From Chiloscyllium plagiosum (lineage: Eukaryota), in NCBI RefSeq assembly GCF_004010195.1, contig NC_057718.1, positions 73,430,234 to 73,494,233 of the forward strand: a DNA stretch of 64,000 bases. Reading direction: 5' to 3'. A program made the translations under genes and the position numbers. Of the stretch, positions 1 to 59,122 are shown one piece after another. The notes under the pieces were generated by a model, which saw nothing but the letters and a program-made list of their open reading frames with translations, was not told the DNA's origin and ran no database searches. How positions within the stretch are numbered: the stretch's first letter is position 1; each line of letters starts with the position of its first letter.

Positions 1-255
1 GCCCCCACCCCAGTCTGACCTTTCACCCTCACCTTGACCTCTTTCCACCTATCACATTTCCGACGCCCCTCCCCCAAGTCCCTCCTCCCTACCTTTTATC
101 TTAGCCTGCTGGACAAACCTTCCCCATTCCTGAAGAAGGGCTTATGCCCGAAACGTCGATTCTCCTGTTCCCTGGATGCTGCCTGACCTGCTGCGCTTTT
201 CCAGCAACACATTTCCAGCTCTGATCTCCAGCATCTGCAGACCTCACTTTCTCCT
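1..255 (+). mobile_element. Penelope-like element 3' end (family A), truncated by window edge
   Basis: Same terminal sequence as 3744-3941, which lies downstream of PLE coding sequence; contains HHR core and ~32-nt tail. Confidence 0.85.
127..160 (+). ncRNA. Minimal hammerhead ribozyme motif (family A)
   Basis: CTGAAGA-A-GGGC-ttat-GCCC-GAAA-CGTC; palindromic ACGT in place of helix III; stem I weak. Confidence 0.75.
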
Positions 256-257
256 CG

Positions 258-520
258 TAGAAATATAGAAAATAGTTGCAGAAGTAGTCTATTAGGCTGT
301 TCGAGTCTGTACCACCATTCAATATGATCATGGCTGATCATGCAATCTCAGAATCCCATTCCTGTTTTCTCTCCATACCCCTTGATTCCTTTAGTCACGA
401 GGGCCACATCCAGCTCCCTCTTGAATATATCTAATGAACTAGCCCCAACAGCTTCCTGTGGGAGAAAATTTCACAGGTTCACAACCTTCTAAGTGAAGAA
501 ATTCTTCTTCATCTCATCTA
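258..520 (-). mobile_element. CR1 LINE 3' fragment
   Basis: Reverse complement resembles the ORF2 C-terminus/3' UTR of other CR1 copies in the window. Confidence 0.7.
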
Positions 521-2026
521 GCCACTGACACCATGCACCTATGACTAGTGCAATGGAAAGTAGATTCATGATACCCACAGACTGGACCTGTGTGTATGCA
601 TTGAACTTGTCTCTTGAAGGTAGTAACCAACCTCTCCATCGAGGCAGCCAGACACATGTACGCTAGAGTCAGCATGGTGTAAATAATTCATGCTTCAATT
701 CCATATCTGAAGACATTTGACAAACTACCTATTGTTCTTGTGCCTGTCTATGCTTTTTGAGTAAATCATTAATGATTGAGACCATGGGATTTTCTTCAGT
801 CCAGGGATGAACAGATGACAAGTCTTTGCCAGCTTTTGGATGCCAGCAGCCTGGAGTAGTTCTTCCTCAACCAGCTATGGAAACATGTCAGTGATGTTTT
901 CACCAGATTGCCAAGTCTAATGTAGGTAGAGGTTAAAGTCTCTGAGCTGGTGAAAGTGAATACCTTGTTGGTGTAGCCTCTGAGAGTTTATTAACTTCCA
1001 CCTCAGGAGGGAGCTGGAGATGGAGTTAAGCTTCTCTGGTGCTGATCTCTTGCTGGTAAAGACTTGTGGGGGTGCCATTAGTGTCTAGATAACAGGTGGA
1101 TTTAGTTGTCTAAGAAGGATAAAAAGACTCATTGATTTTTACAGCATGGCAGGAGGCCTTCATGTCCATACTGGACAAAAGAAAGATCTGACTACATTAA
1201 TCTCATTGTCATCTTTTGCCCCATAATCATGTAGGTTATGGAAACTCAATTGAATATCTAAATATTGATTAAATATTTCAACAGTTTCTGCCGCAAACAC
1301 ATCTTTAAGCAGTGATCTCCAGACTTGTACCACCCTCTGAATGAAAAAAAAATTCTCCTGAACTCTCCTCTTCACCTTCTATATCTTACCTTAAACCTGT
1401 GTTCCCTGTTTATTGAGCCCTCTAGTAATGGAGAATAGTGCCTTCTTATATACCCTTTCTATGCCCTTCATATTCAAAAACATGTCTATCAGGTTCCCTT
1501 AACCTTTGCTGCTTCAAGGAAAGCAAAACTAGTCTATCCCAAACTTTCTACATATATAGCCCAAACCCTCCAACTTAGGCAGCATCCTACTAAATCTTCT
1601 TTCCACCCTTTCCAGAGCAAATACGTCTTTCCTGAACTGCAGCCAGTACTTCAGTGTTTCATATTTCCAGCAAAATCTCCTTGCTCTTGTCTCCTGTGCT
1701 TCAGCTAATAAAGGCATAAAACCCATGTACCTTTTAAACCATTTTATTTAATGGGCTTCCAGAAACAGAAACATTCTTCCACATCACCCTCTGCTTCTTG
1801 CCTCTTGGCCAATTTTAGCTCTAACTTGGATCCAATGTGCCACTTTGGCTTGGAACCCATGGGCTCTTACTTTTTTGGCGAGTCTGCCATATCAAAGGCC
1901 TTGCTAAAGATCATGTAGGTCAAGTCAAATGTATTATCCTCATCAACATTCCAGGTTGCCTCCTCAAAAATTCAATCAAATTTACAAACACATCTGTCCC
2001 TAACAAGTGCGTGCTAACTTACCATG

Positions 2027-3009: not shown

Positions 3010-3941
3010 ATATCCACAGCTACCTAGACTACACCTCCTCCCACCCTGCCCCTGTAAAAACGCCATCCCATATTCCCAATTCCTTCGTCTCCGCCGCATC
3101 TGCTCCCAGGAGGACCAGTTCCAAAACCATACAACCCAGATGGCCTCCTTCTTCAAGGACCGCAATTTCCCCCCAGACGTGGTCGATGATGCTCTNNNNN
3201 NNNNNNNNNNNNNNNNNNNNNNNNNNNNNNNNNNNNNNNNNNNNNNNNNNNNNNNNNNNNNNNNNNNNNNNNNNNNNNNNNNNNNNNNNNNNNNNNNNNN
3301 NNNNNNNNNNNNNNNNNNNNNNNNNNNNNNNNNNNNNNNNNNNNNNNNNNNNNNNNNNNNNNNNNNNNNNNNNNNNNNNNNNNNNNNNNNNNNNNNNNNN
3401 NNNNNNNNNNNNNNNNNNNNNNNNNNNNNNNNNNNNNNNNNNNNNNNNNNNNNNNNNNNNNNNNNNNNNNNNNNNNNNNNNNNNNNNNNNNNNNNNNNNN
3501 NNNNNNNNNNNNNNNNNNNNNNNNNNNNNNNNNNNNNNNNNNNNNNNNNNNNNNNNNNNNNNNNNNNNNNNNNNNNNNNNNNNNNNNNNNNNNNNNNNNN
3601 NNNNNNNNNNNNNNNNNNNNNNNNNNNNNNNNNNNNNNNNNNNNNNNNNNNNNNNNNNNNNNNNNNNNNNNNNNNNNNNNNNNNNNNNNNNNNNNNNNNN
3701 NNNNNNNNNNNNNNNNNNNNNNNNNNNNNNNNNNNNNNNNNNNGCCTATCACCCTCACCTTGTCCTCCTTCCACCTATCGCATTTCCAACGCACCTCCCC
3801 CAAGTCCCTCCTCCCTACCTTTTATCTTAGCCTGCTGGACACACTCTCCTCATTCCTGAAGGGCTTATGCCCGAAAGGTCGATTCTCCTGTTCCTTGGAT
3901 GCTGCCTGACCTGCTGCGCTTTTCCAGCAACACATTTTCAG
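3010..3941 (+). mobile_element. 5'-truncated Penelope-like element (family A) spanning a gap
   Basis: Encodes SYLDYTSSHP..KNAIPYSQFLRLRRICS; 11-bp TSD ATCTGTACTTG at 2999-3009 and 3942-3952; damaged HHR near 3856-3883. Confidence 0.88.
3196..3743. other. Assembly gap
   Basis: N run. Confidence 1.
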
Positions 3942-5489: not shown

Positions 5490-6610
5490 TTGAACAGGGC
5501 AACACAGGAACAGTCCCTTCGGCCCACCATGTATGTGCCAACCATGATGCCATTCTAAATTGATCACATCTACCTGAACATAACTCATATATCTCTATTC
5601 CTTATTTATTCATGTGCCTCTCTCAATGCCTCTTAAATGTTGCTATCATCTCTCCTTGTACCACCTCCCCCAGCTGCGCATTTCGGGTATCTACCACCTC
5701 TGTGTAAAAGACTTGCCGCACACATGTCCTTTAAACTTTCCACTGTCACCTTAAACCTATGCCCCCTTGTATTTGACATTTACACCCTGGGAAAAATACT
5801 CCAACCATCCATCCAATCTACAGGCAGAATGGTGGAACAGTGGTTGGCACTGCTGCCTCACAGCACCAGGAACCTGAGTTTAATTCCAGCCTTGGATGAC
5901 TGTCTGTGTGGAGTTTGCACATTCTCCCCGTGACTAAGTGAGTGTCCTCTGGTTTCCTCCCACAGTCCAAAGATGTGAAGGTTAGGTGGATTGACCAGGC
6001 TAAATCACCCAGAAATGTGCAAGCTGGGTGGATTAGCCATGGGAAATGTATAGCTGTGGGGATTGGTTGTGGATGTTTTCTGGAGAATGATGTCAACTTG
6101 ATAGGGATTCTATGATTCTGTTTCTCTCATAACTTAATATACTTCTATCAAAATGCACCTCAGCCTCTGATGTTCTGGCAAAAACAATCGAAGTTTGTCC
6201 AATCTTTCCTTACAGTTTATACACTCCAATCCAGGCAGTATACTGGTAAAATTGGTTGCACACTTCTCTGAAATTGGATTACATATTTGTTCCTCTATTT
6301 CTCCCTGAATCTTTGGGATCTATAGCATACACCCAGCAGTGTGTTTGCCTCTTTTGTATTTTCTTACTCCTACCCATGTAGCTTCATTTAATGATCGATC
6401 CAAGATATGATCTCTCCTCACTGCAATAATTGATTTCTTATTCAATATCACACCTCTCCCTCCTTTTCTATCCCACTATCTATCTTGTCTGATCACCCAA
6501 TATCCAGGAATGTTGAGCTTCCAAGTCTTGGATATAGCAACGTTGTCATACTCCCATATGCCTATTAGTGCCCTCAGACTATCTAGTTTATTCTTCAGAC
6601 TCTGCTAAAA
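5490..6610 (-). mobile_element. CR1 LINE fragments with nested SINE
   Basis: Antisense 3' end and endonuclease-like segments similar to other copies. Confidence 0.7.
5822..6119 (+). mobile_element. Older HE1/V-SINE
   Basis: Head TGGTGGAACAGTGGTTGGCAC, V-domain, GATTCTAT tail. Confidence 0.8.
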
Positions 6611-8760: not shown

Positions 8761-8789
8761 TGTTTTGGAAGCAGCAATAAACTATTGTG

Positions 8790-9235
8790 AGGAAGAGGAA
8801 GTAAATGGGCAGGTGTTACACCTTCTGCAATTGCATGGGAAGATGTCTTGGAGGAATGGGGAGATGTTTGGAGTTGAGTAGGAGTGCACCAAGGTGGTCC
8901 AGCGGGAATGGTCCCTGTGGAAGGCTGACAAAGGAGGGGAATATGTTTCTGGTGGCAGCATCCCACTGGAGTTGGCGGATATGTCGCTTAATGATCTTTC
9001 GGATGTGGAAGCTGGTAGGATGGTAAGTGAGGATGAGGAGGACCGTGTCACTGTTATGGCAGGGTAGAGAGGCAGTGAGAGCTGAAATGTGGGAGATGGA
9101 TTAGATATAGCTGAGAGCCTCGTCAACCACTGTGGTGGGAGTCCTTGTTGAGGAGGAAGATGGACATTTAGAAGGCCCCCTTTCAACGTTATCATCTTTG
9201 GAACAGGTGCATTAGAGGCAAAGCAACTCAGAGAA
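8790..9235 (-). mobile_element. Penelope-like element internal fragment (RT thumb to GIY-YIG linker)
   Basis: PPLSAFHRDHS..LVHS..FPCNCRRCNTCPF, Cys-rich linker typical of Neptune-type PLEs. Confidence 0.82.
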
Positions 9236-9259
9236 TAGAGTATTTACAGGGAGCTGTAA

Positions 9260-9430: not shown

Positions 9431-9489
9431 TTCTTAAAAAGCTATTGTCAGCAATTCTGCTCAACTTTGCTTTGTAACTCATTATATCA

Positions 9490-10164: not shown

Positions 10165-11240
10165 TAAATGGTATTCCATTCAGATAAATGTGAGGTGATG
10201 CACTTGGGCAGGACAAATAAGACAAGGGAATACATAATGAATGGTCAGACCCCAGGAAGCATGATGACCAGAAGGATCTTGGTGTCATGTATACATATCC
10301 CTTAGGGTATCAGGACAGGTGAATGAAGTGTTTAAGAAGACATTTGGTATGCTTGCATTTATCAGTTTAGATTAGATTACATTACAGTGTGCAAACAGGC
10401 CCTTTGGCCCAACAAGTCCACACCGACCCGCCGAAGCGAACCCACCCATACCCCTACATTTACCCCTTACCTAACACTATGGGCAATTTAGTATGGCCAA
10501 TTCACCTAGCCCTGCACATCTTTGGACTGTGGGAGGAAACCGGAGCACCCGGAGGAAACCCACGCAGACACGGGGAGAACGTGCAAACTCCACACAGTCA
10601 GTCGCCTGAGGCGGGAATTGAACCCGGGTCTCTGGCGCTGCGAGGCAACAGTGCTAACCACTGTGCAAAGAGTTTAAGAGCAAGGAGGTTATGATGAGAC
10701 TGTGTAAAATTTTGGTTAGGTCATAGCTAGAGTACTGTGTGCAGTCCAGAATCCACATTATAGGAGCAATGCAATAGCATTGGAAAGGGTGTGGAGGACA
10801 TTTAGCAGGATGTTGCCTGGGCTAAAGAGTTTCAGTTATAAAACGAGATTGTAAAGTCTGGGGTTGTATTCCTCGTTACCAAGACGATTGAGAGGGGCCG
10901 TGATTGAAATGTTAAAAATTGAGGGGCACAAATAGAGTGAGCAGGAAGAAACATTTCTCCCGAATGGAGGGATTAATGATGAAAGGCATAGATTTAAAAT
11001 AAGGGCCAGAGATGCAAAAAAAGCTTTTTCACTCGAGGGTGATGGGAATCTGGAACTGACTGCCTATAATGTTGGTAGAGGCAGAAACTCTGACCACATT
11101 TACGGATGTGCATGTATGATGCGAAGGCATACATGGCTATGGGCCAAATGCTGGAAAATGGGATTAGAATACATGTTGTTTTTGACTGACATTGATGGCT
11201 GTGTTGAAGAGCCTTTACCTGTGCTATAGCTTTCTATGAC
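10165..11240 (+). mobile_element. CR1 LINE 3' portion with nested SINE
   Basis: DKCEVMHLGRTN, DLGV, LEYCVQ motifs and 3' tail. Confidence 0.85.
10367..10666 (-). mobile_element. HE1/V-SINE (young)
   Basis: Near-identical to other young copies. Confidence 0.92.
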
Positions 11241-14357: not shown

Positions 14358-14485
14358 AGAGAAAATGAGGGCTGCAGATGCTGGAGATCAGAGCTGAAAA
14401 TGTGTTGCTGGAAAAGCGCAGCAGGTCAGGCAGCATCCAAGGAACAGGAGAATCGACGTTTCGGGAATAAGCCCTTCTTCAGGAA
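14358..14485 (-). mobile_element. Mini PLE insertion (HHR + terminus + tail, family A)
   Basis: 15-bp TSD TGTTTGTTAATAATG at 14343-14357 and 14486-14500. Confidence 0.9.
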
Positions 14486-19290: not shown

Positions 19291-19544
19291 TCTTGCCCAC
19301 CAGCATTTTCTGTCTGTTAATTCGAGTCTTTGGATCCTGGCAGTTTGCTGTAAAAAATTTGTTATACAATTTAACCTGCCTTGTGTCCTACATTATGATG
19401 TGCCAAAAGACCTAGCATCAAACAGTCACTGAAATTTATTTAGTTACCACATCACTCATTTGAGTAATATGCAGAATGTATTTCAGTGCTGGTGTTAGCC
19501 ATATGTCCCAAAAACTGACAGATCATATGAAGCAGCCTATCCCT

Positions 19545-19987
19545 TTTGCCCGAAACGTCGATTTTCCTGCTCTTCAGATTAGATTAGATTACATTACATT
19601 ACAGTGTGGAAACAGGCCCTTCGGCCCAACAAGTCCACACCGACCCACCGAAGCGTAACCCACCCATACCCCTACATTTACCCCTTAACTAACAGTAAGG
19701 GCAATTTAGCATGGCCAATTCACCTAACCTGCACATTTTTTTTTGGACTGTGGGAGGAAACTGGAGCACCTGGAGGAAACCCACGCAGACACGGGGAGAA
19801 TGTGCAAACTCCACAGAGTCAGTTGCCTGAGGCAGGAATTGAACCTGGGTCTCTGGCGCTGTGAGGCAGCAGTGCTAACCACTGTGCCACTGTGCCGCCC
19901 ACAGATGCTGCTTGACCTGCTGTGCCTTTCCAGCACCTCTCTAATCTAGACTCTGGTTTCCAGCATCTGCAGTCTTTGTTTTTACCT
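19545..19987 (+). mobile_element. Mini PLE terminus split by a SINE
   Basis: GCCCGAAACGTCGA..tail; 25-bp direct repeat at 19520-19544 and 19988-20012. Confidence 0.85.
19577..19900 (-). mobile_element. HE1/V-SINE
   Basis: Full head, V-domain and tail. Confidence 0.92.
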
Positions 19988-20140
19988 AGATCATATGAAG
20001 CAGCCTATCCCTCTGGCTGTTTTTGACAAGCAAGTTAATGATCACATTCAACCAGCAGGTGCTTGCACATCTCAGGTCACAGTAGACTATAGATGTGATG
20101 TTGTAATTGGACAATATTCGCTAAATAATTCTGAGTATGA

Positions 20141-25590: not shown

Positions 25591-25782
25591 ACAAGCTTCT
25601 GACTGACAATGGAGAGCCAGGCCCAACACACTGGGGGCTTGTTGGAAAGATACCAACACCTGCATCTCATCATCCATCCACAGGTACTCTGAATTAAAGG
25701 TCTAGCAATAGGGAAATCATGAATATTGTATGCACTGCAGGTACCCCATTCTCACAATGAGAAGGGCGGTACTAGGAGACAG

Positions 25783-25871
25783 CGCTGAAAATGTGTTGCT
25801 GGAAAAGCGCAGCAGGTCAGGCAGCATCCAAGGAACAGAAGAATCGACATTTCGGGCATAAGCCCTTTTTC
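25783..25871 (-). mobile_element. Mini PLE insertion (family A, tailless, HHR mutated)
   Basis: 9-bp TSD AGGAGACAG at 25774-25782 and 25872-25880. Confidence 0.85.
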
Positions 25872-26429
25872 AGGAGACAGGAGACACCCAAGCAAAAAGA
25901 AACCACATACAGGAACCTCAGGGCAGTGCAGAATTGATGGGACCCTCCATCTTTTCCTCTATCCTACCTACTCCCTCCAAGCCTTCAAGGTTCTAGCCAA
26001 GATGAGTCAACATAACTGTCAGGAAGACACATACCATGTCTGGCCCATCCAAACAGAAGCACTCCTGGAGTTGCCTGATGAAGCCTGCAGGACGTTTGGA
26101 AAAATATATCTGTCTTAACCAGACATCGGATTGTCAATCTCTGTGTAGGGCCAAATGGCATTTTAACATCATCCTAACTACAGACCACATGGAGGTCTGT
26201 GCTGAGAACCTGCTGCATCATGTGGGAGCAAGACAATCAATGCATATACATGGTATGGGTCATGCTGATATCTTTGGCCTCTTGTAGAATATCCCTATTG
26301 TTTCACAGCCTCAATGGACAAAGGCGTAACCATCAAGGAGTTCTCCAGCCATATCTGGGGTAGAGATGTACAACAAATGGAGGGAGGGTAATGGTTGTAA
26401 GTTTGTTTGCTGAGCTGGAAGGTTTGTTT

Positions 26430-26464
26430 TCAGACATTTTGTCACCAGACGGTGTCGTCAGTGA
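26430..26464 (-). ncRNA. Decayed hammerhead motif (family D)
   Basis: Antisense TCA-CTGACGA-..-AAAA-TGTC-TGA; differs from GAAACGTC by CpG-type changes; stem I UCA/UGA intact. Confidence 0.5.
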
Positions 26465-28173
26465 GTCTCTGGTGAAGCACTAGTATTTTGTCCTGCTTTC
26501 TATTTTTGTGTCTTGCTTTCTTAGGGTTGGTGATATCATTTCCAGTTCTTTTTCTCAGAGGATGGTAAATGGGGTCCAAATCAATGTGTTTATTGATGGC
26601 ATTCTGGTTAGAATGCCATGCCTCTAGGAATTCCCGTGCATGTCTCTGTTTAGTTTGTCTTAGGATGGATGTGTTGTCCCAGTCAAAGTGGTGTCCTTCT
26701 TCATCTGTATGTAAGGATACTAGTGATAGTGGGTCATGTCTTTTTGTGGCTAGTTGGTGTTCATGTATCCTGGTGGCTAGTTTTCTGCCTGTTTGTCCAA
26801 TGTAGTGTTTGTTACACTCCTTGCATGGTATTTTGTAAATGACATTCATTTTTATGGTTGTTTCTATAGGGTCCTTTAGGCTCATAAGCTGCTGTTTAAG
26901 TGTGTTGGTAGATCTGTGGGCTACCATGATGCCAAGCGGTCTGAGTAATCTCGAAACTATTTCAGAGATGTCTTTGATGTAAAGTAATGTGGCTGGAGTT
27001 TCTGGGCATGTTGTGTCTGCTTGTTTGGGTTTTTTGTTGAGAAATTGGCAGACTGTGTTTATTGAGTAACCATTCTTCTTGAATACGCTGTATAGGTATT
27101 TGTTTTCTGCTCTTCGTAGTTCCTGGATGCTGCAGTGTGTATTTAATGTCTTAAATACAAACTACCGCTCAACACCCCACAGGCCAAAAGAATAGCAGAA
27201 CAGAACGGTTGCAGAATGCTTAGAGAAATGAGTAATGATTCCCACAACTGACTCCATAAATACAAATCGGGAGACTTCATGCCAAAAAACTTTATGCACT
27301 AACATGACAGACACACTAGAATGAGACATAAGCATCAAACAGCAGGAAACAAAGAATGGAAAGAAGAACCCTTCAGGAAAAACTAGACAAGCTCACACAA
27401 GAAAACAACACAGAGAACGCTGAGGCTTGAATTTAAAAAAGCTATCAAACTGACCACTAACAGATACAGAAACAGCCATCCTAGTAAGAGGGCTAAACTA
27501 CAACTACAGGGACATGGACAAAAAGGACTTCCTGGCAGCATTAGAATCAACACTGAAAGACAATGGACTCACAGATGAAACCCAGCAGACCATCAGGCAG
27601 ATAGTTGACCAATATTAAGCAGGAAAAAGGCAGTAAACACACTCAATACACAGGAAAGGAAAGCCCTAGAAAGACTTTAGAAAAATTGCAATCCGACCTG
27701 CAGACAAAGGGCACAAGACTGTCATTCCAAACAGAAAGGATGACAATGAAAAAAGTGAACTCACAGCTTGCAGATAACAACACTTACCAACAGGTGGTGA
27801 TAGACCTGACTCCACAACTAGAAAACAGAGTCACATCCTTTCTGAAAAAGGCTTCAGAAATTCGGAGAAATAAACAAGACAGATTTGCAAAAAAATGAAA
27901 CTGGATGGATCCTTCTGTGGATTACCTAAAGTACACAAACCAAGGGCTCCCCTCAGTCCCATAGCCTCACTACCTGGAACACCGACACACAGGCTAGCCA
28001 AGGAACTCCACCAAAATCTAAAATACCTAGCGGAAGACTCATGCCACTCCATCCATGAATTCCTGAACACCATCAAGGACACTAAAACAGAAGAGGATGA
28101 AATAATGGTCTCCTTTGACATATCAATTCTGTTCACATCAATTAACATCAACCTGGTGAAAGAAACACTGACT

Positions 28174-28353
28174 GATTAGATTACATTGCACATCTTTGGA
28201 CTGTGGGAGGAAACCGGAGCACCCGGAGGAAACCCATGCAGACACGGGGAGAATGTGCAAACTCCACACAGTCAGTCACCTGAGGCTGGAATTGAACCAG
28301 GGTCTCTGGCGCTGTGAGGCAGCAGTGCTAACCACTGTGCCACCGTGCCGCCC
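28174..28353 (-). mobile_element. HE1/V-SINE with internal deletion
   Basis: V-domain joined directly to (AATCT)n; interrupts PLE RT at KETLT/ALLEE. Confidence 0.9.
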
Positions 28354-28872
28354 ACTGCACTACTAGAAGAACCAAAGACACAAACACCAGACAGCGCCAG
28401 CTTCATCAGCAAAGACAACATCCTCAAGCTAGTAGACCTGTGCCTTACCACCCACTTCACATTTAATAACAAGACCTACAAACAAATCAATGGTACACCC
28501 ATGGGATCACCAATATCAGGATTCCTAGCTGAAGCAGTAATGCAGAGACTTGAACAAACAGCCCTCCCAACTATTCAACCCAAACTTTGGGTCCCCCATG
28601 TGGATGACATCTTTGTCATCACAAAACAGAACAAATTGGAGGAAACCAACAACACCATCAACAATATCCTCACTGGCATAAAATTCACAAACGAGGAGAA
28701 CAACAACAGATTCCCATTCCTGGATTTCACAGTAGAGTGAACTTCAAACCAGTGTCTACAGGAAAACAATACACAAACCAAATACTTAACTACAGAAGCA
28801 ATGTTTGTGAGAAGATTTGTAGCTCGGGTGCTCATTGCTGTGGTTCTGTTCACCGAGCTGGAAGTTTTTGTT

Positions 28873-28912
28873 GCAAACGTTTCGTCCCCTGGCTAGGCGA
28901 CATCCTCAGTGC
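28873..28912 (-). ncRNA. Minimal hammerhead ribozyme motif (family B)
   Basis: Reverse complement of 29158-29197. Confidence 0.75.
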
Positions 28913-29157
28913 TTGGGAGCCTCCTGCGAAGCGCTTCTTTCCTCCGGTGTTTATAGTGGTCTGTCCCTGCCGCTTCCGGTTGTCAGTTTCAGCTGGCTAG
29001 TTGATGTAACGACACGCCATTAACAAACACATCGACCTGGACCCAATATTCCAACCATTACAGCGGACAGCTGAAACTGACAACCGGAAGCGGCAGGGAC
29101 AGACCACTATAAACACCGGAGGAAACATCAAAGAAGCGCTTCGCAGGAGGCTCCCAA

Positions 29158-29197
29158 GCACTGAGGATGTCGCCTAGCCAGGGGACGAAACGTTTGC
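29158..29197 (+). ncRNA. Minimal hammerhead ribozyme motif (family B)
   Basis: GCA-CTGAGGA-T-GTCGCCT-agcc-AGGGGAC-GAAA-CGTT-TGC; stem I GCA/UGC; stem II 6 of 7 pairs. Confidence 0.78.
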
Positions 29198-30031
29198 AAC
29201 AAAACCTCCAGCTCGGCGAACAGAACCACACCACAGAAGCAATCATCCCAACTGTTATCTGGTATGGTGACAAAATGTCTGAAAACAAACCTTCCAGTTC
29301 AGTGAGCAAACTTACAACTAGGACCTCAACCTAGGCTACAAATCTTCTCAAAGATTACGGGAGGGTAATTCTTCAGGATGACTAGGGAATAGGGACCCTG
29401 CAGGTCTCATCATGCAGAGAACATGAATTTGTGTAGAAAATTCTTCCCTTCTATAAGCCTTAATATTGGTACGTCCTCAGCCCCCTTCCTGCCAGGTTTG
29501 GTCACTTACCCTAACCATTCAAAATGTAGTTGCAACCATTTACTTCACTTTTAGAGACCTTCGATTTCCAACACAATGGAAAATGATTGAGCGCTCATTA
29601 GCTACTGGTTTCCAGCTGGTAAATCCATTCCATTCCTCGTAGTTCATTCCATAAAACCCACAGACCTTACATTCCCGAGGTCCTGACTGGACTCACCATC
29701 CTGAGCCTGCACCTGCCTGCCCTTCCCACCCACCCTCTGGCACAGAAGGTGATCATGCCAGGTGTAGTCATTCACTGCCATCACCTTCAAGCCAGACAGC
29801 TCCCAGCTATGGATGACTGCCGCCAGCCACCCTTCATAATCCCTTCCCAGCAATCACTACTATATCCCTCCCCAGCAGATACTGTTGTCCTCCTCACAAC
29901 TCCTATCCTTCCTTCTCCAAAGCTTACAGTCCCTAGTGCCAAAGATTAATTTTCTAATCTCATTCCTACAGCAATTCATTTGCAATCTCCATGAGTATTG
30001 GCTTTGGCTCCTTGTAATTATGTTTCCATGT

Positions 30032-34833: not shown

Positions 34834-34877
34834 AAAAAAAACATGTGTAACATCATTGCTGCTTCTTTCTTGCCAAG

Positions 34878-35467: not shown

Positions 35468-35598
35468 AGGCAAAGGTGAGGACTACAGATGCTCGAGATT
35501 AGAGTCAAGATTAGAGTGGTGCTGGAAAAACACAGCAGATCAGGCAGCATCCAAGGAGCAGGAAAATCAATGTTTCGGGCAGGAGCCCTTCATCAGGG
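35468..35598 (-). mobile_element. Mini PLE insertion (family A variant)
   Basis: Antisense CTGATGA-A-GGGC-tcct-GCCC-GAAA; TSD AAAAGAAT at 35460-35467 and 35599-35606. Confidence 0.82.
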
Positions 35599-38195: not shown

Positions 38196-39218
38196 GATGT
38201 AGAGGTGCCGGTGTTGGACTGAGGTGGTCTAAGTTAAAAATTGCACAACATCAGGTTATAGTCCAACAGGTTTATTTAGAAGTATTGGTTTTCAGAGTAC
38301 TGCTCCTTCATCCAGTAGCAGGATCATAAGGCACAGAATTTATAACAAAAGATTACAGTGTCATGCAACTGAAACGATACATTGAACAAACCCAGATTGC
38401 TGTTAAGTCTTTCATTTTTTAGAATGAGTTGCAGATTTCGCCAAGACCTTCCCTACATCTCCACTTCTCACCTTTAAACAACCACCAAACCTTAAACAGA
38501 CCATTATTCACAGCAAACTGCCCAGCTTTCAGGACAACTCACGCAGACACTCTCTCATACACACACTCTCTCTCATACACACACACACACACATACACCC
38601 CACACACTCACTAACTTACAGGCTTATACTCCATCACACTCACACACATACTTTACCAAGCAACACACACACTCTCTCATACGTACTCACACTCAACGGA
38701 CACATTCACATGCACACACTCACACACTCTCTCATGCACAAACACACACACATATTAGTCTATGGGGCAAATTTGCATTTGCAGAATTGCAATTGCAGAT
38801 ACATTCTATTTTGCTCAAAAGGCACACAATCTGCAGGCAGTCAATGTAGGGAGTCAATCTGTATAAGATTTTATAAATTCCAACTTTGGAAATAGAACCA
38901 GTCTGACTCAAGATTGCGATACGACAGACTCTGGCCTGACAAATTCAATGCATTGTCTGAGCTGAGATGTCACCTTTTTTAATAAAAGCTGAAGCTATCT
39001 CAAGAATGTGATTTAAAAGAAGTTCTGGAATTTACATATTAATGAACTTAAACCTGCAACCTATCCTAAAAGATGAAAGACTTAACAGCAAGCTAGGTTT
39101 GTTTAATATATAATTTCAGTTGCATGACACTGTAATCTTTTGCTATAAATTCTGTGCCTTATGATCCTGTTCCACAGCTACCTGATCAAGGAGCAAACCT
39201 GGTGTGTGATTTTTAAAG
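38196..39218. mobile_element. Inverted-repeat PLE (family C) with CA-rich interior
   Basis: Arms ~38321-38434 and 39054-39167; KTFPTSPLLTFKQPPNLKQ; TSD ATTTTTGAT at 38187-38195 and 39219-39227. Confidence 0.82.
38540..38755. repeat. CA/CT-rich degenerate microsatellite
   Basis: Direct inspection. Confidence 0.9.
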
Positions 39219-41895: not shown

Positions 41896-41964
41896 TATGA
41901 TCGTTCTGATACACACATGATGAGTTGAGTTCATCAATGACTGTTGAGAAGATTGAGTTTGGAA

Positions 41965-42532: not shown

Positions 42533-42829
42533 TGCGGCACAGTGGCTCAGTGGTTAGCACTACTGCCTCACAGCACCAGGGCCCCAGGTTCGATTCCAGC
42601 CTTGGGCGATTGTGTATGGAGCTTGCACATTCTCCCCATGTCTGCGTGGGTTTGCTCCTGTTTCCTCCCACAAGATGTGCAGGTCAGGTGAATTGGCCAT
42701 GTTAAATTGCCCATAGTGTTAGGTGTATTAGTCAGAGTGAACTGGGTCTGGGTGGGTTACTCTTCGGAGGGTAGGTATGGACTTGTTGGGCTGAAGGGCC
42801 TGTTTCCACACTGTAGGTAATCTAATCTA
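42533..42829 (+). mobile_element. HE1/V-SINE, second subfamily
   Basis: Full length. Confidence 0.9.
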
Positions 42830-42924
42830 TATAGCCACAATCACCAAGAAGATGGAGGAGTCCAATTCAATCCCTGGAATAGTGGTAGTGCTGTGAAGTA
42901 TCAAGATGTTCCCCATGAAGAAGG

Positions 42925-47389: not shown

Positions 47390-48600
47390 TCCGGAATCAG
47401 CAGCTGGTACAGGGAAGGAGTCCCGGAGCAGTGGCCAGTGCAGGGAAGCCTTCCTGGAATGGCGGCAGGCACAGGGAAGCAGTCTGGAGCAATGGCCAGT
47501 ACAGGGAAGCAGCCCCGGAACAGCAAAGGGCACGGGGAAGAAGACCCGGAACAGCGGCCAGCACAGTGAGGCAGTCCTGGAATAGCAGCCGGCACGGGGA
47601 AGCAGTCCTGGAATAGTGGCTGGCACGGTGAAGCACCTCCGGAACAGCAGCCAGCATGGAAGAGCAGACCAGGATCAGCGGCCAGCATGGGTAAGCAGCC
47701 CCTGGAATAATGGCCAGCACAGTGAAGCAGTCTCAGCGCAGTGGCCGGCATATGGAAACAATTTCGGATCAATGGCCAGTGCAGGGAAGCAGGTCCAGAA
47801 CAGTGTCCAATGCAGGGAAGCCATCTCGAACAGCGGCTGGCATGGGGAAGTTAACCAGGAGCTGTGACTGGCACGAGGAAGCAGTTCCAGAACTTTGGCC
47901 AGTGCAGGGAATCAGGTCCCGTGCATGTGGAAGCAGTCCGGGAGCAGTGGCAAGCAAAGGGAAGCCATCTTGGAACAGCAGCTGGCACAGAGAAGCTGTC
48001 CCAGTGCAGTGGCTGGATGGTGAAACAGTCCCAGAGCTGTTGACGGCACAGTGAAAGATCCCGGATCAGTGGATGCCACAGGTAGCAATTCCAGATCAGT
48101 GCCCAATGCAGAGTAGCAGGTCTGGAGCAGCAGCTGGCACAAGGAAGCAGTCCTGGAGCAGTGGCTGGCAAGGGAAAGCTGTCCCGGGGCAGTGGCTAGC
48201 ACTGGGAAGCAGTCCCAGAGCAGTGGCTAGCACAGGAGAACTGTCCCGGAGCAATGGCTGGCACGGGGAAGTAGTCCCGGAGCAGTGGCCGGCACAGGGG
48301 AGCGGTCCCTGAGCAGTGGCCAGCAGTGGCCTGTTATAGTGGCCAGTACAAGGAAGCAGTCCAGTTGAGTGGCTGTCACAGGGACGCAGCCCCAAAGCAG
48401 TTGCCGGCACGGGGAAGCAGCACTGGTGCAGTGGCCAGAGCAGGGAGCCCTCCAGCAGCAGTGGCCAGCATGGGGAAGTAGTCCGAGAGCAGTGGCTGGC
48501 ATGGGGAAGTCGTCCCAGAGCAGTGACTGGCATAGGGAAGCAGTCTTGGAGTGGTGGCCAGCACAGGGAAACAGTCTTGGGAGGATGCCAGCGAAGAGAA
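47390..48600. repeat. GC-rich minisatellite, ~31-bp unit, roughly 39 degenerate copies
   Basis: Consensus approximately GGAGCAGTGGCCAGCACAGGGAAGCAGTCCC. Confidence 0.95.
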
Positions 48601-50102: not shown

Positions 50103-50233
50103 TGATTTGGAGATGCCGGTGTTGGACTGGAATGTACAAAGTTAAAAATCACACAGCACTAGGTTATAGTCCAACGGGTTTAATTGGAAGCACACTAGCT
50201 TTCGGAGCATTGCTCCTTCATCAGGTGATAGTG
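50103..50233 (-). mobile_element. Mini PLE insertion (family C)
   Basis: TSD GAACTCA at 50096-50102 and 50234-50240; homologous to 38196-38315. Confidence 0.88.
50193..50227 (-). ncRNA. Minimal hammerhead ribozyme motif (family C)
   Basis: CAC-CTGATGA-A-GGAGC-aat-GCTCC-GAAA-GCTA-GTG; stem I CAC/GUG; AGCT palindrome. Confidence 0.8.
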
Positions 50234-52450
50234 GAACTCAATAAGGCTTGTGAAGCATGACCTCCCTTCACAAAGCCATGCTGACTATCTCTAATCAATC
50301 TATAGTTTTCCAAGTAATCATAAATCCTGTTTCACAGAATTCTCTCCCAATAATTTGCCCACCACAGACATAAGACTGACTGGTCTGTAATTCCCAGCAT
50401 TACCCCTATCCCTTTCTTGATCAAGGGAATAAAATTTGACACCCTCCAGTCATCTGGAACTACTCCAGTGGACAGTGAGGATGTAAAGATCATCACCAAA
50501 GGCACAGCAATCTCTTCCTGTAGTAACCTAGGGTATATCCTGTCTGGCCCAGGGAATGTATCTATCCTTATATTTTTTCCAAAATTTTCAGCATATTCTC
50601 CCTCTTAAAATCAACCTGTTCAAGCATATCAATCTGTTTCACACTGTCCTTACAAACGTCAAGGTCTCTCTTAGTAGTGAATACTGAAGCAAAGTATTCA
50701 TTCAGGACCTCCCCTATCTCCTCCAATCCCTGCGCTATCCCTGATCAGCCCTATCTTCACTCTGGCCATCCTCTTGTTCCTCATATAAGTGTAGAACGCC
50801 TTCAGGTTTTTCCTACCCACTAAAGCTTTTTCATGCCCCGCTTCTAGCTCTCCTAAGTCAATTATTCAGTTCTTTCCTGGCTCCCTTGTAACCCCCCAGA
50901 ACCCTGTCTGATCCTTGCCTCCTCAACCTTAAGTGAGCTTTCTTCTTCCTCTTGACTAGATGTTCCACACCCCTTGTCACCTAAGGTTCCTTCACCCTAC
51001 CATCCCTTCCTTGTCTCAGTGGGACAAACCTGTCCAGCACTATCAGCAAGTGCTCCCTAAACAACCTCCACATTTCTGTTGTGCATTTTCCTGAGAACGT
51101 CTGTTCCCCATTTAGGTATCCCAGTCCCTGCCTCATCACATTATAATTCCCCTCCCCCAATTAAACACCTTTCCACACCATCTGCTCTATATGGATATAG
51201 TAAAGGCCAGGGAGTTGTGATCACTATCACCGAAATGCTCTCCCACCGAGAGATCTGACAGCTGGCCTGGTTCATTGCCAAGCACTATGTCCAGTATGGT
51301 CTCCCCTCTAGTCAGCCTGTCGACATATTCAGTTAAGAATTCCAGGACACACTTGACAAAAACTGCTCCATCCAAACTATTTGAACTGAGCAGGTTCTAA
51401 TCAAAATTAGGGAAGTTACTTCTTTATCTTTCCAAAATTTGCCTCCCAATCTGCTCCTCTGTGTCTCTGTTGCTATTGGGGAATCTATAGAAAACTCCCA
51501 ATAAAGTGACTGCTCCTTTCCTGTTTCTGACTTTCACCCATATTGACTCAGTAGACTTTTCTGCATCTGTGATACTATCCCTGATTAGCAATGCACTTCT
51601 TCACCTCTTTTACCTCCCCACCCCACCCCCACAATTCCTTTTGAAAGATCTAAACCCTGGAACATCCAACAACTATTTCTACCTCCATGATATCTAAGTC
51701 TCTGTAATAAGCACAACATCATATTTCCAAGTAATGATCCATGCTCAAAGTTCATCACCCTTATTCCTGATACTTCTTGCGTTAAAATAGACAAACTTTC
51801 TGAATGCTGTATCTGGCTGTTCACTAGCTCCTCCATCCTTAGATCCTTAGCTCCGGTTCCCACCCCCCTGCCAAACTTATTAAACCCTGACAAATCTCCC
51901 GTCCAGGATAATGATGCCCCTTGAGTTCAGGTGCAACCTGTCCTTCTTGCACACGTCCCACTTTCCCCAGAAGGTATCCCAATGATCCACATATCTGAAA
52001 ACTTCCCTTCTACATGAACCCAGAAGCCATGTGTTCATCTGCAATTGCTCTCCTGTTCCTATCCTCACTAGCCTGTTGCACCAGAAGCAATCCTAAGATT
52101 ACTAATCTGCTTTTTCTGCCTTTTAGCTTCCAACCTAACTCCCTATATTCTCTTTTCAGGTCCTCATCCCTTTTCCTAGCTACGTTATTGGTACCGATGT
52201 GTACCAAACATTGTAAAAATTTCACAATACTTTTGTATTTTTGCACTTGAGTACACATGGCAATAAAGGATATTCTATTCTATTTGAATTAAGGTAACTT
52301 GTGGTGATTTACCCATTACACTGGGTCAGTTTCCTTTTTTTAAATTCAAGCACACTTGGTGTCAGTTGGTCTCAAAGAAGTATTAAATTTCACCTCATCA
52401 AAATTACATGCTGTTGTGTAACCAGTGATAGAACAGCACACAATCCACTT

Positions 52451-52757
52451 GGGGTGGCACGGTAGCTCAGTGGTTTGCACTGCTGCCTCACAGCACCAGG
52501 GTCCCAAGTTTGATTTCAGCCTCGGGTGACTGTCTGTGTGGAGCTTGTACATTCTGCATGTATTTCCTCTGAGTGTACTGGTTTCCTCCCACAGTCCAAA
52601 GATGTGCAGTTTAGGTGAATTGGCCATGCTAAATTGCCCATAGTGATAGGTGCATTAGTCAGAGGGAAATGGGTCTGGGTGGGTTACTCTTCGGAGGATC
52701 GGAGTGGATTGGTTGGGCTGAAGGGCCTGTTCCCAAACTGTAGGGAATCTAATCTAA
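52451..52757 (+). mobile_element. HE1/V-SINE, second subfamily
   Basis: Full length. Confidence 0.9.
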
Positions 52758-53349
52758 TTTATACTTTGAGTTATTAAAAATAAACCGATTCTTTCTCTGC
52801 AATACAGTTGTCCACGCACCCATCTCCAACTTAGATTTCAAATAAAACATATGTAGCCTTTGTATGCTTCCACCCTTGAAAAGATGAAATGAAAATTTAA
52901 AATATATTTCATCATAAGGTAAACACAACATGTATCAAAAAAACATTATTTTAATTTCCCTCACTCATTCTTTATCGAGGTTTTGTGCAATTTCTAGTTC
53001 TCAAATTTCTAACGTACCACAGCATCATTACATTCTTGACAGTGCATCTATATTTAAATTAAGCTTTATGAAAAAAAATGAACAAGTATAGTATCATGAG
53101 GTTGAATTAACAAATGCAATTGAAATATTCTTGCATTTTGAGTTTAATTTTCTCCAGAAATGCCGAGGGGTCATGATCAGTGTACGTCAGTGCTTCTTTG
53201 TGATTGACAAAGATTGAAATTTCAAAATGAATAAGGGCCAGTAACAATCAGAGAATCTCTTTTTCTTCTGATATTGTTTTAAATTCTTAGAAAAGTGCCC
53301 TACTCACTTTACAATTTTCAATTCATTATCTTGCAAAATGACTGGGCAC

Positions 53350-56300: not shown

Positions 56301-58830
56301 CCTTTTGATTTCATCTTATTGAACATCTTCTGGAAGTCCACAACTGGTTCCCCTCTATCCACTCTGGTTGAGGCTTCCTCAAAAAACTCTAATAAATTAG
56401 CCAGGCATGATCTCCCTTTCATGAGGCCACGATGACTCTAACTTGATAATATTATGGTTTTTCAAATATTCTGCTATTACTTCTCAATAATTGATTCCAA
56501 AACTTTTGCAGAATAAATGTTTGGCTAATCAGTATATAGTTACTCTCCTTTTGGCCATCTCCCTTTTGGAATAACATTCCCACTGTGTTTTTTAGTTTTT
56601 AAATTGGCAAAATATTTCTCCAATTTACCTTTAATTTTATAATGGTCAAATTAGCAGTTATTATCAAACAATAAATTCTATGCTTTCTTCTGATGTTTTT
56701 CTTTGTTTTGTGCTGAATCCCCAATCCTGGGCTTCAATTTATCCTGTTTAAAGACCTTGAAAATTATGAACCAAAGAAAATCAAAAAGCACCTCTTTCCC
56801 ATTTACCAAATTCCCAAACTGCTCTGAAATCCCAGAAATATATACACTCTCAGACTATGCCTCACTACAAATATGATGGCTCGTGACTGACCATGAGAAA
56901 CTGACTTATCTTCAATAATCTTTTTCTCTTTGCTTATCAATAGAACCTTTTCCAGCCAGGTTTTTTTTTTGTTAGTTTTACTCTCCTATTCTTTTCCCCT
57001 TTCTTGAACAATCTTTTTGCTCTCTTTTGTTGAACTCTAAATTACTGTCAGTCCTCAGGCTTGTTACTTTTTCTGAAGATTTTGTATGTCTCCTCTTTGG
57101 ATCCCTAATACTATCCCTAATTTCTTTTGTAAGCAATACTTGAACCATCTTTCCCAATTTATTTTTGCACTAGATAAGAATTATTGTTATAATTCATTCA
57201 AGCGTTTCTTAAATATTAGCCATTGCCTATCTAATCCTAATCTTTTTGGGAAAGTTCCCCAATTCATCATTGCCAACTCACGTTTCATACTTTTGTAGAT
57301 CCCTTGATTTAGATGCAGAACCTGATTTTTGGATTCAACTTCACTCCCTAACTTAATGAAAAATTCTGTAACTTTATGGTCACTTTTCCCCATAGACTCC
57401 GCACAAGAAGATTGTTAATTCATCCTTTATCATTGCACAAAACCAAGTCTGAGACATGTTGCTGTTTAGTTGGTTTCTCAACATATTAGTGAAAAATAAA
57501 CAATACATATACATTGCAGGAAACACCCTTCCACAGTATTACCACGAGTTTGATTTGTTCAATCTATATATAGTTTAAAGTCACCCATGATTACAGCGTA
57601 CCCTTATTGTATGCATGTCTAATCTCTTGTTACATATTTTTCCTTACATCTCCACTATTGTTTGGGGCCTACAGACAATCCCAACCAATGTTTTCTGCTT
57701 CTTATCTCTACCAATACAAATTCTACATCATGATTTTTCTGAGTCAATATCCTTCCTGAGTATTGCATTGAATGACCCTTTACTAATAATGCTGCCCATC
57801 TCCTTTTATTATTCCTTCCCTTTTAAATATTGAAAACCCCTGAATGTTCAGTTCCCATCCTTGATAACCCTGCAGTCATGGTTCCATAATTGCAATTATA
57901 CCATACTTAGGTCTATCTATTTGCACTGTTAATTCATGTAGCTTACTTTGAATATTCTGCACACCAAGCTAAAATGCTCATATGCTTGTCTTTTTAGCCT
58001 TATAGTCACCTTAGCTTTATTTTGTGCAATGGCGCCATTTGTTTCTTGTCTGCTTTTTTGCTTTCTACTTGTACATTTTTTATTTTTGTGTACATTCTTG
58101 TTTCATCCTTCTATGCCTCCCTGCTCAGGTCCCCATCCTCCTGCCACTCTACTTTAAACCCTCCCAACAATGTTACCAAACAGACCCCGAGGACATTGGT
58201 CATGGTTATGCCCAGATGCAACCAGTCCTATTTGTATTGGTCCCATCTTTCCCAAAATAGCTCCAATGTGCCAGGACCCTGCATCCCTTCCACCTACACC
58301 ATTTCTTCAGCTACATATTCATCTAATACATACTACTATTTTGATGTTGGCTAGCACATAGTGCTGGTAGTAATCTTGAGATTAAAAATAGGACTTCAAA
58401 AGCACTAAATAAATATCCTGACTATCTATACTCAACTTGTTGATCCTCATTTTTTTTTAGCCTTTGTCACCTAACCAATTTGCACTGCTATCACTGCCTA
58501 TTCACCCTCCCCTTTAATGCCCTGCAGCATCTCTGAGACATCATTGACACTGGCACTGGGAGGCAACATACCATCTTACTGTCTGTCTTGTGGCCACAGA
58601 AATGCTTGCCAGAAATGCTATCCCCTCACTATTGAATTCCCTATTACTTTAGCCTTGTGATTCCTCTTCCCTCCTTCTCATGCAGCAGAGCAATCTTTGG
58701 GGCATGGATCTAGCTCCTCCTCTTTCTCCCTGACATGTTGTCTTCCCTAACATTATCCATGATGGTATATCTATTTGCCAGACTGCTGAGCTTATATCTG
58801 ATCTGTGCAGTCGCCTATCCTTGTTTGTCA
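53350..58830 (-). mobile_element. Stack of nested decayed CR1 LINEs (younger copy at ~55185-56570)
   Basis: KYEVMHF, KFVDDTKI, GRSCLANLLEFFEE, MGKSDHK motifs. Confidence 0.85.
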
Positions 58831-58908
58831 CCTACTGATTATGCTGTTTAGCATGCAAGTAATCCTGTTGTGTAGGTTCGTCAGGTAAACACCTTATTTA
58901 TAGGTAGG

Positions 58909-59122
58909 AGAAAGTGAGGTCTGCAGATGCTGGAGATCAGAGCTGGAAATGTGTTGCTGGAAAAGCGCAGCAGGTCAGGCAGCATCCAGGGAACAGGAGA
59001 ATCGACGTTTCGGGCATAAGCCCATCTTCAGGGCTGAAGAAGGGCTTATGCCCGAAACGTCGATTCTCCTGTTCCCTGGATGCTGCCTGACCTGCTGCGC
59101 TTTTCCAGCAACACATTTCCAG
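58909..59122. mobile_element. Palindromic mini PLE (family A)
   Basis: 91-bp arms 58941-59031 and 59034-59124; 16-bp TSD at 58893-58908 and 59123-59138. Confidence 0.93.
59001..59064. ncRNA. Two back-to-back hammerhead cores (59001-59031 minus, 59034-59064 plus)
   Basis: CTGAAGA..GGGCttatGCCC-GAAACGTC on both strands. Confidence 0.72.

Follow-up and report, generated by a model that had tools for sequence, protein, structure and literature searches.

Probable minimal type I hammerheads, with predicted cleavage, in the pseudo-LTRs of four PLE families of a carpet-shark-like genome

Results

The window, the whole stretch of 64,000 nucleotides that was analysed, carries dispersed copies of a short hammerhead-like motif that fall into four families, A to D (residues are named by hammerhead numbering: C3, G8, G12, C15.2, H17 and so on). 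The family A motif, CUGAAGA-A-GGGC/UUAU/GCCC-GAAA-CGU-C, is found at 130-157(+) and 59034-59061(+). The former belongs to the hammerhead at 127..160 (+), which has an intact core and a weak stem I (C-G, U-A, U·U, A-U) and whose parent element extends past the window's left edge. The family A insertion at 3010..3941 (+), flanked by a target duplication of 11 bp, runs from a PLE coding remnant (3044-3196; 51 aa, 80% to P0008/P0009) through an N gap into the pseudo-LTR (pLTR), and its hammerhead at 3853..3883 (+, core from 3856) has a core shortened by a 3-nt deletion, plus C15.2G. A mini-insertion at 14358..14485 (-) with a 15-bp target duplication starts 3 nt before C3 and retains an intact core (14482-14455), with one stem II pair broken. 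Additionally, a decayed copy lies at 25775..25876 (-) (motif from 25873(-); G8A, C15.2U), and a variant subfamily is represented by a copy at 35468..35598 (-) (motif from 35596(-); G16.2A), in which stem II is unchanged and N7, loop II and the tail differ, and by a remnant at 19543..19972 (+), whose two pieces, 19543-19572 and 19904-19972, are separated by a short repeat. At 58909..59122, a single event with a 16-bp target duplication produced a palindromic insertion with arms head-to-head. Neither of its two cores, 59031-59004(-) and 59034-59061(+), has a matching 5' stem-I strand; the 59034 copy lacks it because it stands at the centre of the head-to-head palindrome.

Families B and D are nested. 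The family D insertion, 26393..29347, is a single event with an 11-bp target duplication and an inverted 5' part, and it contains the family B insertion together with a short repeat. Its ORF is divided into a C-terminal part with the GIY-YIG endonuclease at 26442..27161 (-) (79% to P0001; PF01541 at E 0.0014, below the curated cut-off) and an inverted, broken N-terminal and reverse-transcriptase (RT) part at 27150..28805 (+) (PF00078 at E 1.2e-5, below the curated cut-off). The decayed hammerhead at 26430..26464 (-) has stem I UCA/UGA, G12A, C15.2U and a 3-nt deletion at the start of stem II that takes out the position of the extra base/AUG, and the opposite end of the insertion, 29262..29345 (+), holds a 3' hammerhead half, likewise with G12A and C15.2U, and the tail. 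Decay and stem I thus agree with the original prediction for family D, but the palindrome is not legible: at palindrome and core the sequence reads AAAA-UGU-C, neither ACGU nor GAAA, with UG at the palindromic positions, for which we infer ACGU. Copying of D from an already dead template, with G12A and C15.2U at both ends, was considered and rejected, as a third CpG has decayed oppositely at the two ends. Because this CpG has diverged and CpG content is at background level (0.20 in the D body, 0.24 in the background), independent decay accounts for the two changes at both ends.

The family B insertion (28803..29232; a single event, target duplication 11 bp) consists, in order, of an inverted pLTR with tail, the ORF end and a direct pLTR. 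The minimal hammerhead at 29158..29197 (+) reads GCA-CUGAGGA-U-GUCGCCU...AGGGGAC-GAAA-CGU-U-UGC, with stem I GCA/UGC, palindrome ACGU and a predicted cut after 29194, and the other arm carries an identical hammerhead at 28873..28912 (-) (motif from 28909(-)). Stem I and the strands GUCGCCU/AGGGGAC are as first proposed, but only 6 of the 7 stem II positions pair, the fourth pair being a G·G mismatch. The motif of B and D overlaps coding frames at both ORF ends. Specifically, the C-terminus of the family B ORF (29016..29171 (+); 81% to P0002 residues 411-462) crosses the hammerhead core, and its stop codon lies inside stem II. The ATG at 29167..29169 (+), composed of A9, the extra base and G10.1, opens a frame homologous to the PLE N-terminus, so that the 'extra base' of family B is the U of the AUG starting the element's N-terminal frame; in the inverted arm, 36 aa of this frame match P0041 at 47% (E 1.2e-4, 54 proteins searched). 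The ORF's final residues and, in a different frame, its initial residues are both encoded by this one core.

The family C motif, CAC-CUGAUGA-A-GGAGC/AAU/GCUCC-GAAA-GCU-A-GUG, occurs at 50227-50193(-) as the intact hammerhead of a mini-insertion, 50103..50233 (-), with a 7-bp target duplication, stem I CAC/GUG, palindrome AGCU and H17 = A. A longer family C insertion at 38196..39218, with a 9-bp target duplication, has PLE-like inverted arms: the inverted arm bears a decayed hammerhead from 38312(-) and the direct arm a broken one at 39182(+). It also holds a weak PLE coding remnant at 38428-38538(+) (26 aa, 38% to P0012, E 2e-4, 54 proteins searched), which a six-frame search missed and for which pairwise and Pfam comparisons gave nothing. 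Among the four PLE families originally proposed, therefore, PLE coding remnants lie next to A, B and D, whereas C has this weak remnant only, which hints at a link to a PLE. Matches at 55428, 38121, 20638, 29376 and 21312 belong to no family, have poor core or stems, and were dropped.

The type I core CUGANGA...GAAA..UH is intact in families A, B and C and decayed in D. In A, B and C, G10.1-C11.1 closes helix II and A9 is followed by an extra base, the latter as had been proposed for these three families; this region is deleted in the only D copy covering it. A descriptor that asks for the core, for U16.1-H17 and for 3 bp or more in stem II, applied to both strands with palindrome and stem I left unrequired, gives 8 matches in the window, compared with a mean of 0.165 and a maximum of 2 in 200 dinucleotide shuffles. 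The palindromic 15.2/16.2 without loop 3 is present in 7 of the 8 matches, D having UG, and the extra base in all 8, though ties favoured the extra base; truncated copies are without the short helix I. In line with the original prediction, the described motifs are present at each of its five sets of coordinates, where the stems of A (GGGC/GCCC) and C (GGAGC/GCUCC, CAC/GUG) read as given, and more copies exist than it listed. Rfam 15 yields zero hammerhead matches in the window, at the gathering score and to E 10, and three of 11 matches from a loose first scan fit none of the families, as would be expected if a short pattern were being matched by chance. That reading is refuted, and its probability practically nil, by the excess over every shuffle, by the unrequired stem I and palindrome, and by the fixed position at PLE ends.

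The hammerheads of A, B and D sit in the PLE pLTR, sense to the ORF, and the insertions in the window have inverted arms and 7-16 bp of duplicated target, a layout described for PLE insertions (PMC3846280). No host exon was identified among the 6 of 15 ORFs scanned. In B/D, the RT is followed by a C-terminal GIY-YIG without a zinc-finger linker; such a linker between RT and endonuclease is a published clade mark (10.1101/2021.04.23.441226). Among relatives of the A ORF, 7 of 17 have the linker motif C-X(2-5)-CxxC (two shark proteins of 67-80% identity are among the 7), versus 0 of 5 relatives of B/D. Family A's own linker region falls within the N gap, and the family C remnant ends before the linker. 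From the linker alone, B and D are assigned to the Penelope/Poseidon type, and A is placed provisionally, with C as a probable further member, in the zinc-finger-linker type (Neptune/Nematis).

Stem I, unrequired by the search, is Watson-Crick at 11 of 12 positions across the four families, which 1 of 24 strand permutations reaches. With three unrelated relatives added (seven families), the count rises to 20 of 21, reached by 1 of 5040 permutations. This anchored count takes one copy per family, chosen for its intact 5' flank (A130 and, from L009, the minus-strand copy), and leaves out L031 and L039, which are identical to L030. In column shuffles of a MAFFT alignment, 0 of 500 reach the paired fraction or the covariation score, with family C scored as unpaired since its row was placed off by one column. 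Because the descriptor itself demands stem II pairs, counting them as evidence would be circular. At pair 10.2-11.2, the peptide of the distant relative P0041 forces G-C, B has U-A, and two amino acids are changed; the peptide-forced differences of P0041 are confined to the free position 7 and stem II, and the sole pair forced on both sides is compensatory. Such a compensatory pair, altering two amino acids, supports selection on RNA structure. Taken together with the unrequired stem I pairs, it supports the view that RNA structure was selected in the parent elements.

The covariation originally proposed is thus present between families, in stem I and in one compensatory stem II pair, but not among the window copies, where no compensatory change occurs within families. 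The further step from covariation to selection on catalysis does not hold, as the pattern speaks for selection on structure and not directly for catalysis, and the B/D motif also overlaps coding frames. Likewise, the excess of core over flank conservation set as a check is not seen: in six family A window copies, 1 of 66 core cells and 10 of 360 cells of the 3' tail are changed, which is no difference, in a count that omits six 5' core cells of the core-deleted copy (flattering the core) and in which two of the six copies are arms of one insertion.

With respect to pairing between copies, pair 2.1-1.1 cannot close between A and B or between A and D, despite their common ACGU, and B×D alone is partly compatible, keeping 2 bp of stem I together with helix III. 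The proposal that the two palindromes isolate C from A, B and D is therefore correct as to C, but the palindrome is not the sorter, since stem I also isolates A. In a nearest-neighbour model, the best two-strand fold and two separate monomers are both more stable than the active homodimer folds, which lie 8.8-13.3 kcal/mol above the former. Compared with their shuffles, four of the five stretches gain no folding stability (z 0.20 to -1.26); D, the remaining one, reaches z -2.09, but the fold adopted is a non-hammerhead one. Xenopus dimers cut in 1 of 9 cases, and minimal hammerhead dimers in print cut poorly (PMC4209133).

Discussion

Minimal hammerheads of metazoan PLE pseudo-LTRs were described by Cervera and De la Peña in 2014 (PMC4209133), and the extra base, G10.1-C11.1, palindromic helix III, covarying families and the joint occurrence of ACGU and AGCU are already published there. 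Like the window motifs, the published ones have a type I core without a helix III stem-loop, a palindromic 15.2/16.2, a short helix I, and an extra base between 9 and 10.1 next to G10.1-C11.1; they form several families per genome, mostly as solo copies, some lying 100-700 bp from one another on opposite strands. ACGU and AGCU families coexist in Schistosoma mansoni in Fig. S3 of that work, and the rows nearest in layout are Clonorchis (2) for B/D, Acropora Neptune for A and Marsupenaeus for C (PMC4209133). The window motifs differ in a stem I of 2-3 bp, in the U·U of stem I in A and in the G·G of stem II in B, and the 56 rows of Fig. S3 that were compared are without cartilaginous fish. They have the catalytic core nucleotides in common with canonical Rfam 15 type I hammerheads and differ from these in having no helix III stem-loop or long helix I. 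A literature search, which took in neither most subscription papers nor Repbase, found no publication on shark PLE hammerheads; the supplements of a 2026 preprint may hold chondrichthyan motifs. A catalogue of such motifs would not surprise a specialist, and sharks join the animals with several minimal hammerhead families in PLEs.

We consider it probable that these are minimal type I hammerheads in the pLTRs of four PLE families of a carpet-shark-like genome, with cleavage predicted. In a tandem transcript of a parent element, two same-family copies would fold together, the 4-nt palindrome forming helix III; alternatively, one copy may be held in the fold by the element's own protein. The folded RNA would cut slowly after NUH, and reverse transcription would start within the tail, roughly 60-130 nt 3' of the core, mainly on uncut RNA. 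Because uncut RNA would mostly be used, inserted copies would keep core, cut site and tail together, and all copies with core and tail do span the cut site. Many copies appear to stop a few bases 5' of the core, so that half of stem I is lost. The window copies would be neutrally decaying relics of source elements on which selection worked, and family specificity, given jointly by stem I and palindrome, would be a by-product of divergence.

In the Poseidon element of Anolis carolinensis (PAc), cleavage occurs only when the element's protein is present, the hammerhead is rescued by C3G/G8C, and uncut RNA is the main template (Frangieh et al. 2024, PMC11167929). Both PAc and the shark elements have a tail 3' of the hammerhead. 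PAc's ORF opens where stem II starts, and the cut site follows 26 nt downstream (PMC11167929); similarly, in family B the ATG has its A at 29167, 28 nt ahead of the predicted cut after 29194. Unlike in PAc, an upstream ORF also terminates within the family B motif, and cleavage in the shark is predicted from sequence.

Alternatively, the motif might persist through its overlapping frames and because its structure serves in protein binding, as a promoter or as a start codon, with cutting vestigial, as the two-frame coding of both ORF ends by the family B core, with the extra base inside the ATG, could suggest. Anole hammerhead mutants are reported to have no effect on in vitro insertion, and no anole RNA-seq reads are reported to start or end at the cut site (PMC11167929); Naiad PLEs are described as reaching high copy numbers without hammerheads (10.1101/2021.04.23.441226), and the spanning of the cut site by all window copies with core and tail fits as well. 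We nevertheless regard this account as unlikely, as A and C have the core in common with B/D and yet no alignable flank, the forced differences of P0041 fall only at position 7 and in stem II with the doubly forced pair compensatory, and cutting is reported for the anole motif, as is its rescue by the double mutant (PMC11167929).

Two further accounts bear on the short copies and on the family-specific pairing. Non-LTR retrozymes, which would cycle independently and non-autonomously via self-cleaved circular RNA, also have type I hammerheads derived from or related to PLE ends and occur in a chondrichthyan genome (PMC7229834; 10.64898/2026.07.22.740005), PLE-end-derived ones being reported from the one chondrichthyan genome sampled (10.64898/2026.07.22.740005); several window copies are only about 130 bp long, with target duplications. 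Retrozymes, however, are tandem repeats with mostly canonical hammerheads, whereas the window copies carry minimal motifs, lie scattered and are attached to PLE remnants. The 10 tandem-repeat rows listed include no array of these units, and the copies are collinear with ends of elements in the window that bear ORFs, start immediately 5' of the core instead of at the cut site, and have the inverted arms typical of PLE insertions, which makes a retrozyme origin highly improbable. We find it improbable, too, that palindrome and stem I form a selected lock against cross-family cutting in a hammerhead-crowded genome, a widened form of the earlier idea. Five of the six family pairs are blocked by helix III or pair 2.1-1.1, with only the related B×D partly compatible, but random 3-bp stems are mostly incompatible anyway (permutation mean 4.5 of 12 pairs), and three palindrome types are widespread in animals and co-occur in S. 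mansoni (PMC4209133). Moreover, the dimers would depend on about 4+2×3 bp, predicted to be unstable in trans, and the window has no same-family tandem on one strand.

A more speculative reading, which we hold to be rather unlikely, is that the Poseidon-type hammerhead acts as a translation switch and has no part as a tool of replication: with the conserved extra base supplying the start codon's U, a cut 26-28 nt downstream would strip the AUG from the message, and uncut RNA would serve as template. Since cleavage would depend on a protein encoded by the element itself or on a partner of the same family (palindrome and stem I), this would amount to family-specific negative feedback, in which sufficient bound protein would bring about the cut and end translation of that RNA. 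The ATG overlap and the one compensatory change are observed, and the feedback is what we infer from them. The role of hammerheads in endonuclease-bearing PLEs has been called unclear (10.1101/2021.04.23.441226), and the start-codon overlap of family B offers a specific, testable idea about it. The matched natural variants (ACGU/AGCU, four stem I types) are also cheap material for testing the dimer model.

Beyond the window, the family A pattern has 0 matches in viral contigs and 0 in metagenome contigs, and the family B end is present in 24 sequencing runs among the matches listed, none of them RNA. In 80 PLE-like metagenome loci, a looser scan gives 7 matches in 7 loci, too sparse for judging the motif's generality. 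The strict motif, with an ATG of the family B kind in none of its matches, is found 6 times in 5 of these loci, many of which are short, versus 0.52 by chance and a maximum of 5 in 50 shuffles.

Hammerhead anatomy and element context

All five predicted hammerhead motifs are present, with the sequence read at each place: family A at 130-157(+) and 59034-59061(+), B at 29158-29197(+), C at 50227-50193(-) and a decayed D copy at 26464-26430(-), which reads AAAA-UGU-C and carries a 3-nt deletion. We scanned both strands with a descriptor consisting of the core, a stem II of at least 3 bp and U16.1-H17. It matched the window 8 times, whereas 200 dinucleotide shuffles averaged 0.165 matches and never gave more than 2; the palindrome that replaces helix III is found in 7 of the 8 matches, though it was not demanded. 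Six insertions account for the matches: family A contributes four, one of them two-armed, and B and C contribute one each, that of B having two arms. Further decayed copies were recovered by BLAST within the window, and an Rfam search of the window detected none of these hammerheads. Stem II of B holds a G·G mismatch, and the stem I pairs of A are C-G, U-A, U·U and A-U. Faint A-tail remnants without a hammerhead lie at 42264-42331(+) and 14238-14289(-). The presence of the motifs is confirmed, and their original interpretation is partly supported.

Insertions were delimited by target-site duplications. Family D occupies a single 2.95-kb insertion (26393-29347): the minus strand carries its hammerhead and endonuclease half, and the half with the N-terminus and RT is inverted and reads on the plus strand. 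The inverted 5' part joins the 3' part near 27160, a break that maps close to residues 230-248 of the PLE-type protein P0001; we take this split, inverted arrangement to resemble twin priming. The element also houses two younger insertions. Family B (28803-29232) is nested within D; it carries a pLTR in inverted orientation and the final 52 codons of its ORF, which are 81% identical to the Chiloscyllium punctatum protein P0002. A coding remnant of family A (3044-3196; 80% to C. punctatum proteins) and an A hammerhead are enclosed by one target-site duplication, with an N gap between them. Overall, the proteins nearest to the PLE proteins of the window are Stegostoma tigrinum- and C. punctatum-named, at 76-81% identity, which makes a carpet shark the likely host. 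Of the four PLE families to which the motifs had been ascribed, A, B and D are firmly placed by their coding remnants, whereas C is graded as probably a PLE: its insertion at 38196-39218 shares the inverted-arm layout, but the coding remnant there is weak.

The cysteine linker between RT and endonuclease occurs in 7 of 17 relatives of the A ORF versus 0 of 5 relatives of B and D. Linker presence separates Neptune/Nematis from Penelope/Poseidon (10.1101/2021.04.23.441226), and by this criterion alone the A-ORF relatives would fall on the Neptune/Nematis side and the B/D relatives on the Penelope/Poseidon side. An older PLE coding remnant with the linker lies at 8785-9243(-), about 40% identical to the PLE-type proteins P0009/P0012, and no hammerhead was found near it. 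Two C. punctatum gene models, P0005 (MAP3K7 isoform) and P0007 (EYA3-like isoform), include PLE-derived stretches, reflecting either exonisation or a prediction artefact.

Covariation between and within families

Stem I was counted with C3 and G12 as anchors, in one copy per family chosen for an intact flank. It is Watson-Crick at 11 of 12 positions across A-D, a score that the true strand pairing alone reaches (1/24 permutations), and at 20 of 21 when three unrelated metagenome motifs are added (1/5040 permutations). A tool-based covariation count is concordant, being reached by 0 of 500 shuffles, although its C row is misaligned. Between B and D, which can be aligned, the third stem I pair is G-C against U-A. 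The covariation that had been read as selection on catalysis is real between families, where it demonstrates selection on structure, but does not extend within them: window copies show no compensatory change. In the A alignment a single stem II pair is broken and loop bases vary, and a variant A subfamily differs at N7, loop II and the tail with the same stem II. Nor is excess conservation of core over flank seen among window A copies, in which 1/66 cells are changed in the core and 10/360 in the tail (the 5' core count omits one copy that carries a core deletion). The within-family pattern in the window is as expected of neutral relics.

Overlap with coding frames

Because the core overlaps two reading frames, conservation in B and D is confounded by coding. 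Translated in the ORF frame, the B core gives PSTEDVT, which ends both C. punctatum B-type proteins compared (P0002 and P0057). In the other frame, an ATG made up of A9, the extra U and G10.1 opens MSPSQGTKRLQ...PELQIF, a peptide 47% identical over 36 residues to the N-terminal region of P0041, an unnamed PLE protein; the anole Poseidon ORF begins at the equivalent place (PMC11167929). U then G occupies this site in 10 of 56 published Fig. S3 rows by our own count (PMC4209133), and the extra base is A in families A and C, so that U-then-G is common, not universal.

In a comparison built from one peptide sequence alone, the P0041 codons force five differences from B, at free base 7 and four stem II positions, and none in the core. 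In one pair only are both partners forced, G10.2-C11.2 versus U-A in B, at the cost of replacing Ser with Val and Thr with Pro. This points to RNA structure outranking protein sequence. The closing stretch of another unnamed PLE protein, P0052, is 40% similar to the N-terminal frame of B, as though translation had run on through a junction into a pLTR.

Cross-family pairing, cleavage and insertion ends

The dimer model has each copy cleaved by the core of its partner, with helix III and stem I both built from strands of the two copies. In the pairing matrix, every combination of C with another family puts C·C and G·G into helix III; as predicted, its AGCU palindrome is incompatible with A, B and D. 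A x B and A x D have a complete helix III and lack pair 2.1-1.1 in both directions, whereas B x D retains helix III plus 2 bp of stem I. The palindrome therefore separates families only in part: 5 of 6 family pairs are blocked, and it explains the three with C, but A x B and A x D are blocked by stem I. A folding model that leaves out tertiary contacts gives -13.3, -21.1 and -17.7 kcal/mol for the active homodimers of A, B and C, whereas the best two-strand folds reach -24.1, -29.9 and -31.0 kcal/mol, respectively. These unfavourable modelled energies fit the reported low activity and protein requirement. A tandem-repeat search found no tandem arrays of hammerhead units in the window.

Monomers of the Schistosoma mansoni minimal hammerhead are inactive and dimers cleave weakly (PMC4209133); cleavage of the anole motif requires its own protein, mutants still insert, and RT begins in the tail (PMC11167929). 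The parent transcript would most likely be cleaved slowly, with assistance. The cut site lies inside the copies that retain both core and tail, so these came from uncut or religated RNA. The three solo copies measured begin 2, 3 and 9 nt before C3, and the turning point of the A palindrome lies 1-2 nt before C3; the B arm extends 86 nt, and one D end begins within stem II. That the Poseidon hammerhead cuts off its own start codon as a family-specific feedback seems to us improbable.

Comparison with published systems

Covarying families with the palindrome, G10.1-C11.1 and an extra base have already been described, along with the dimer model (PMC4209133). Fig. S3 of that study contains CG, GC and UA palindromes, with both CG and GC families in S. 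mansoni, and cartilaginous fish are absent from its 56 rows. One chondrichthyan genome has been searched with minimal and canonical models, and retrozymes are present (10.64898/2026.07.22.740005). Related literature was also compared (PMC6155905, PMC7229834, PMC3846280, PMC13725137); published shark PLE hammerheads were not found in the literature searched. Metagenome loci carry minimal hammerheads beside PLE-like genes at L009 617(-) and 2223(+), an inverted pair, L030 2285(+), L031 1079(+), L039 2284(+), L056 314(-) and L077 1783(-), the last with an AGCU palindrome.

Repeat content of the window

The window is 41% G+C with 1,204 N, and short repeats and broken retroelements are abundant throughout. 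Its two N gaps lie at 3196-3743, inside the ORF-bearing A element, and at about 31095-31740. A diverged 31-bp tandem array (47389-48576; 13.4 and 21.3 copies, 66-67% matches) contains no hammerhead motif. An abundant short interspersed repeat, presumably the HE1 SINE, has copies at 2032-2339, 5824-6010, 10373-10687, 19573-19909, 20134-20445, 21527-21839, 28162-28361, 30023-30369, 32094-32417, 34502-34851, 41581-41928, 42523-42859, 44225-44521 and 52443-52786; one copy divides an A remnant and another breaks the D ORF. A frame at 36772-37107(+), which has no useful Pfam match, resembles by eye what we take to be an LTR-retrotransposon polyprotein remnant. LINE-like remnants, presumably CR1-like, lie on the minus strand at 60816-61331 and 61998-62402, both without a Pfam match, and at 14904-15614 (RVT_1, E 9.8e-11) and 16334-16717 (Exo_endo_phos, E 1.2e-4).
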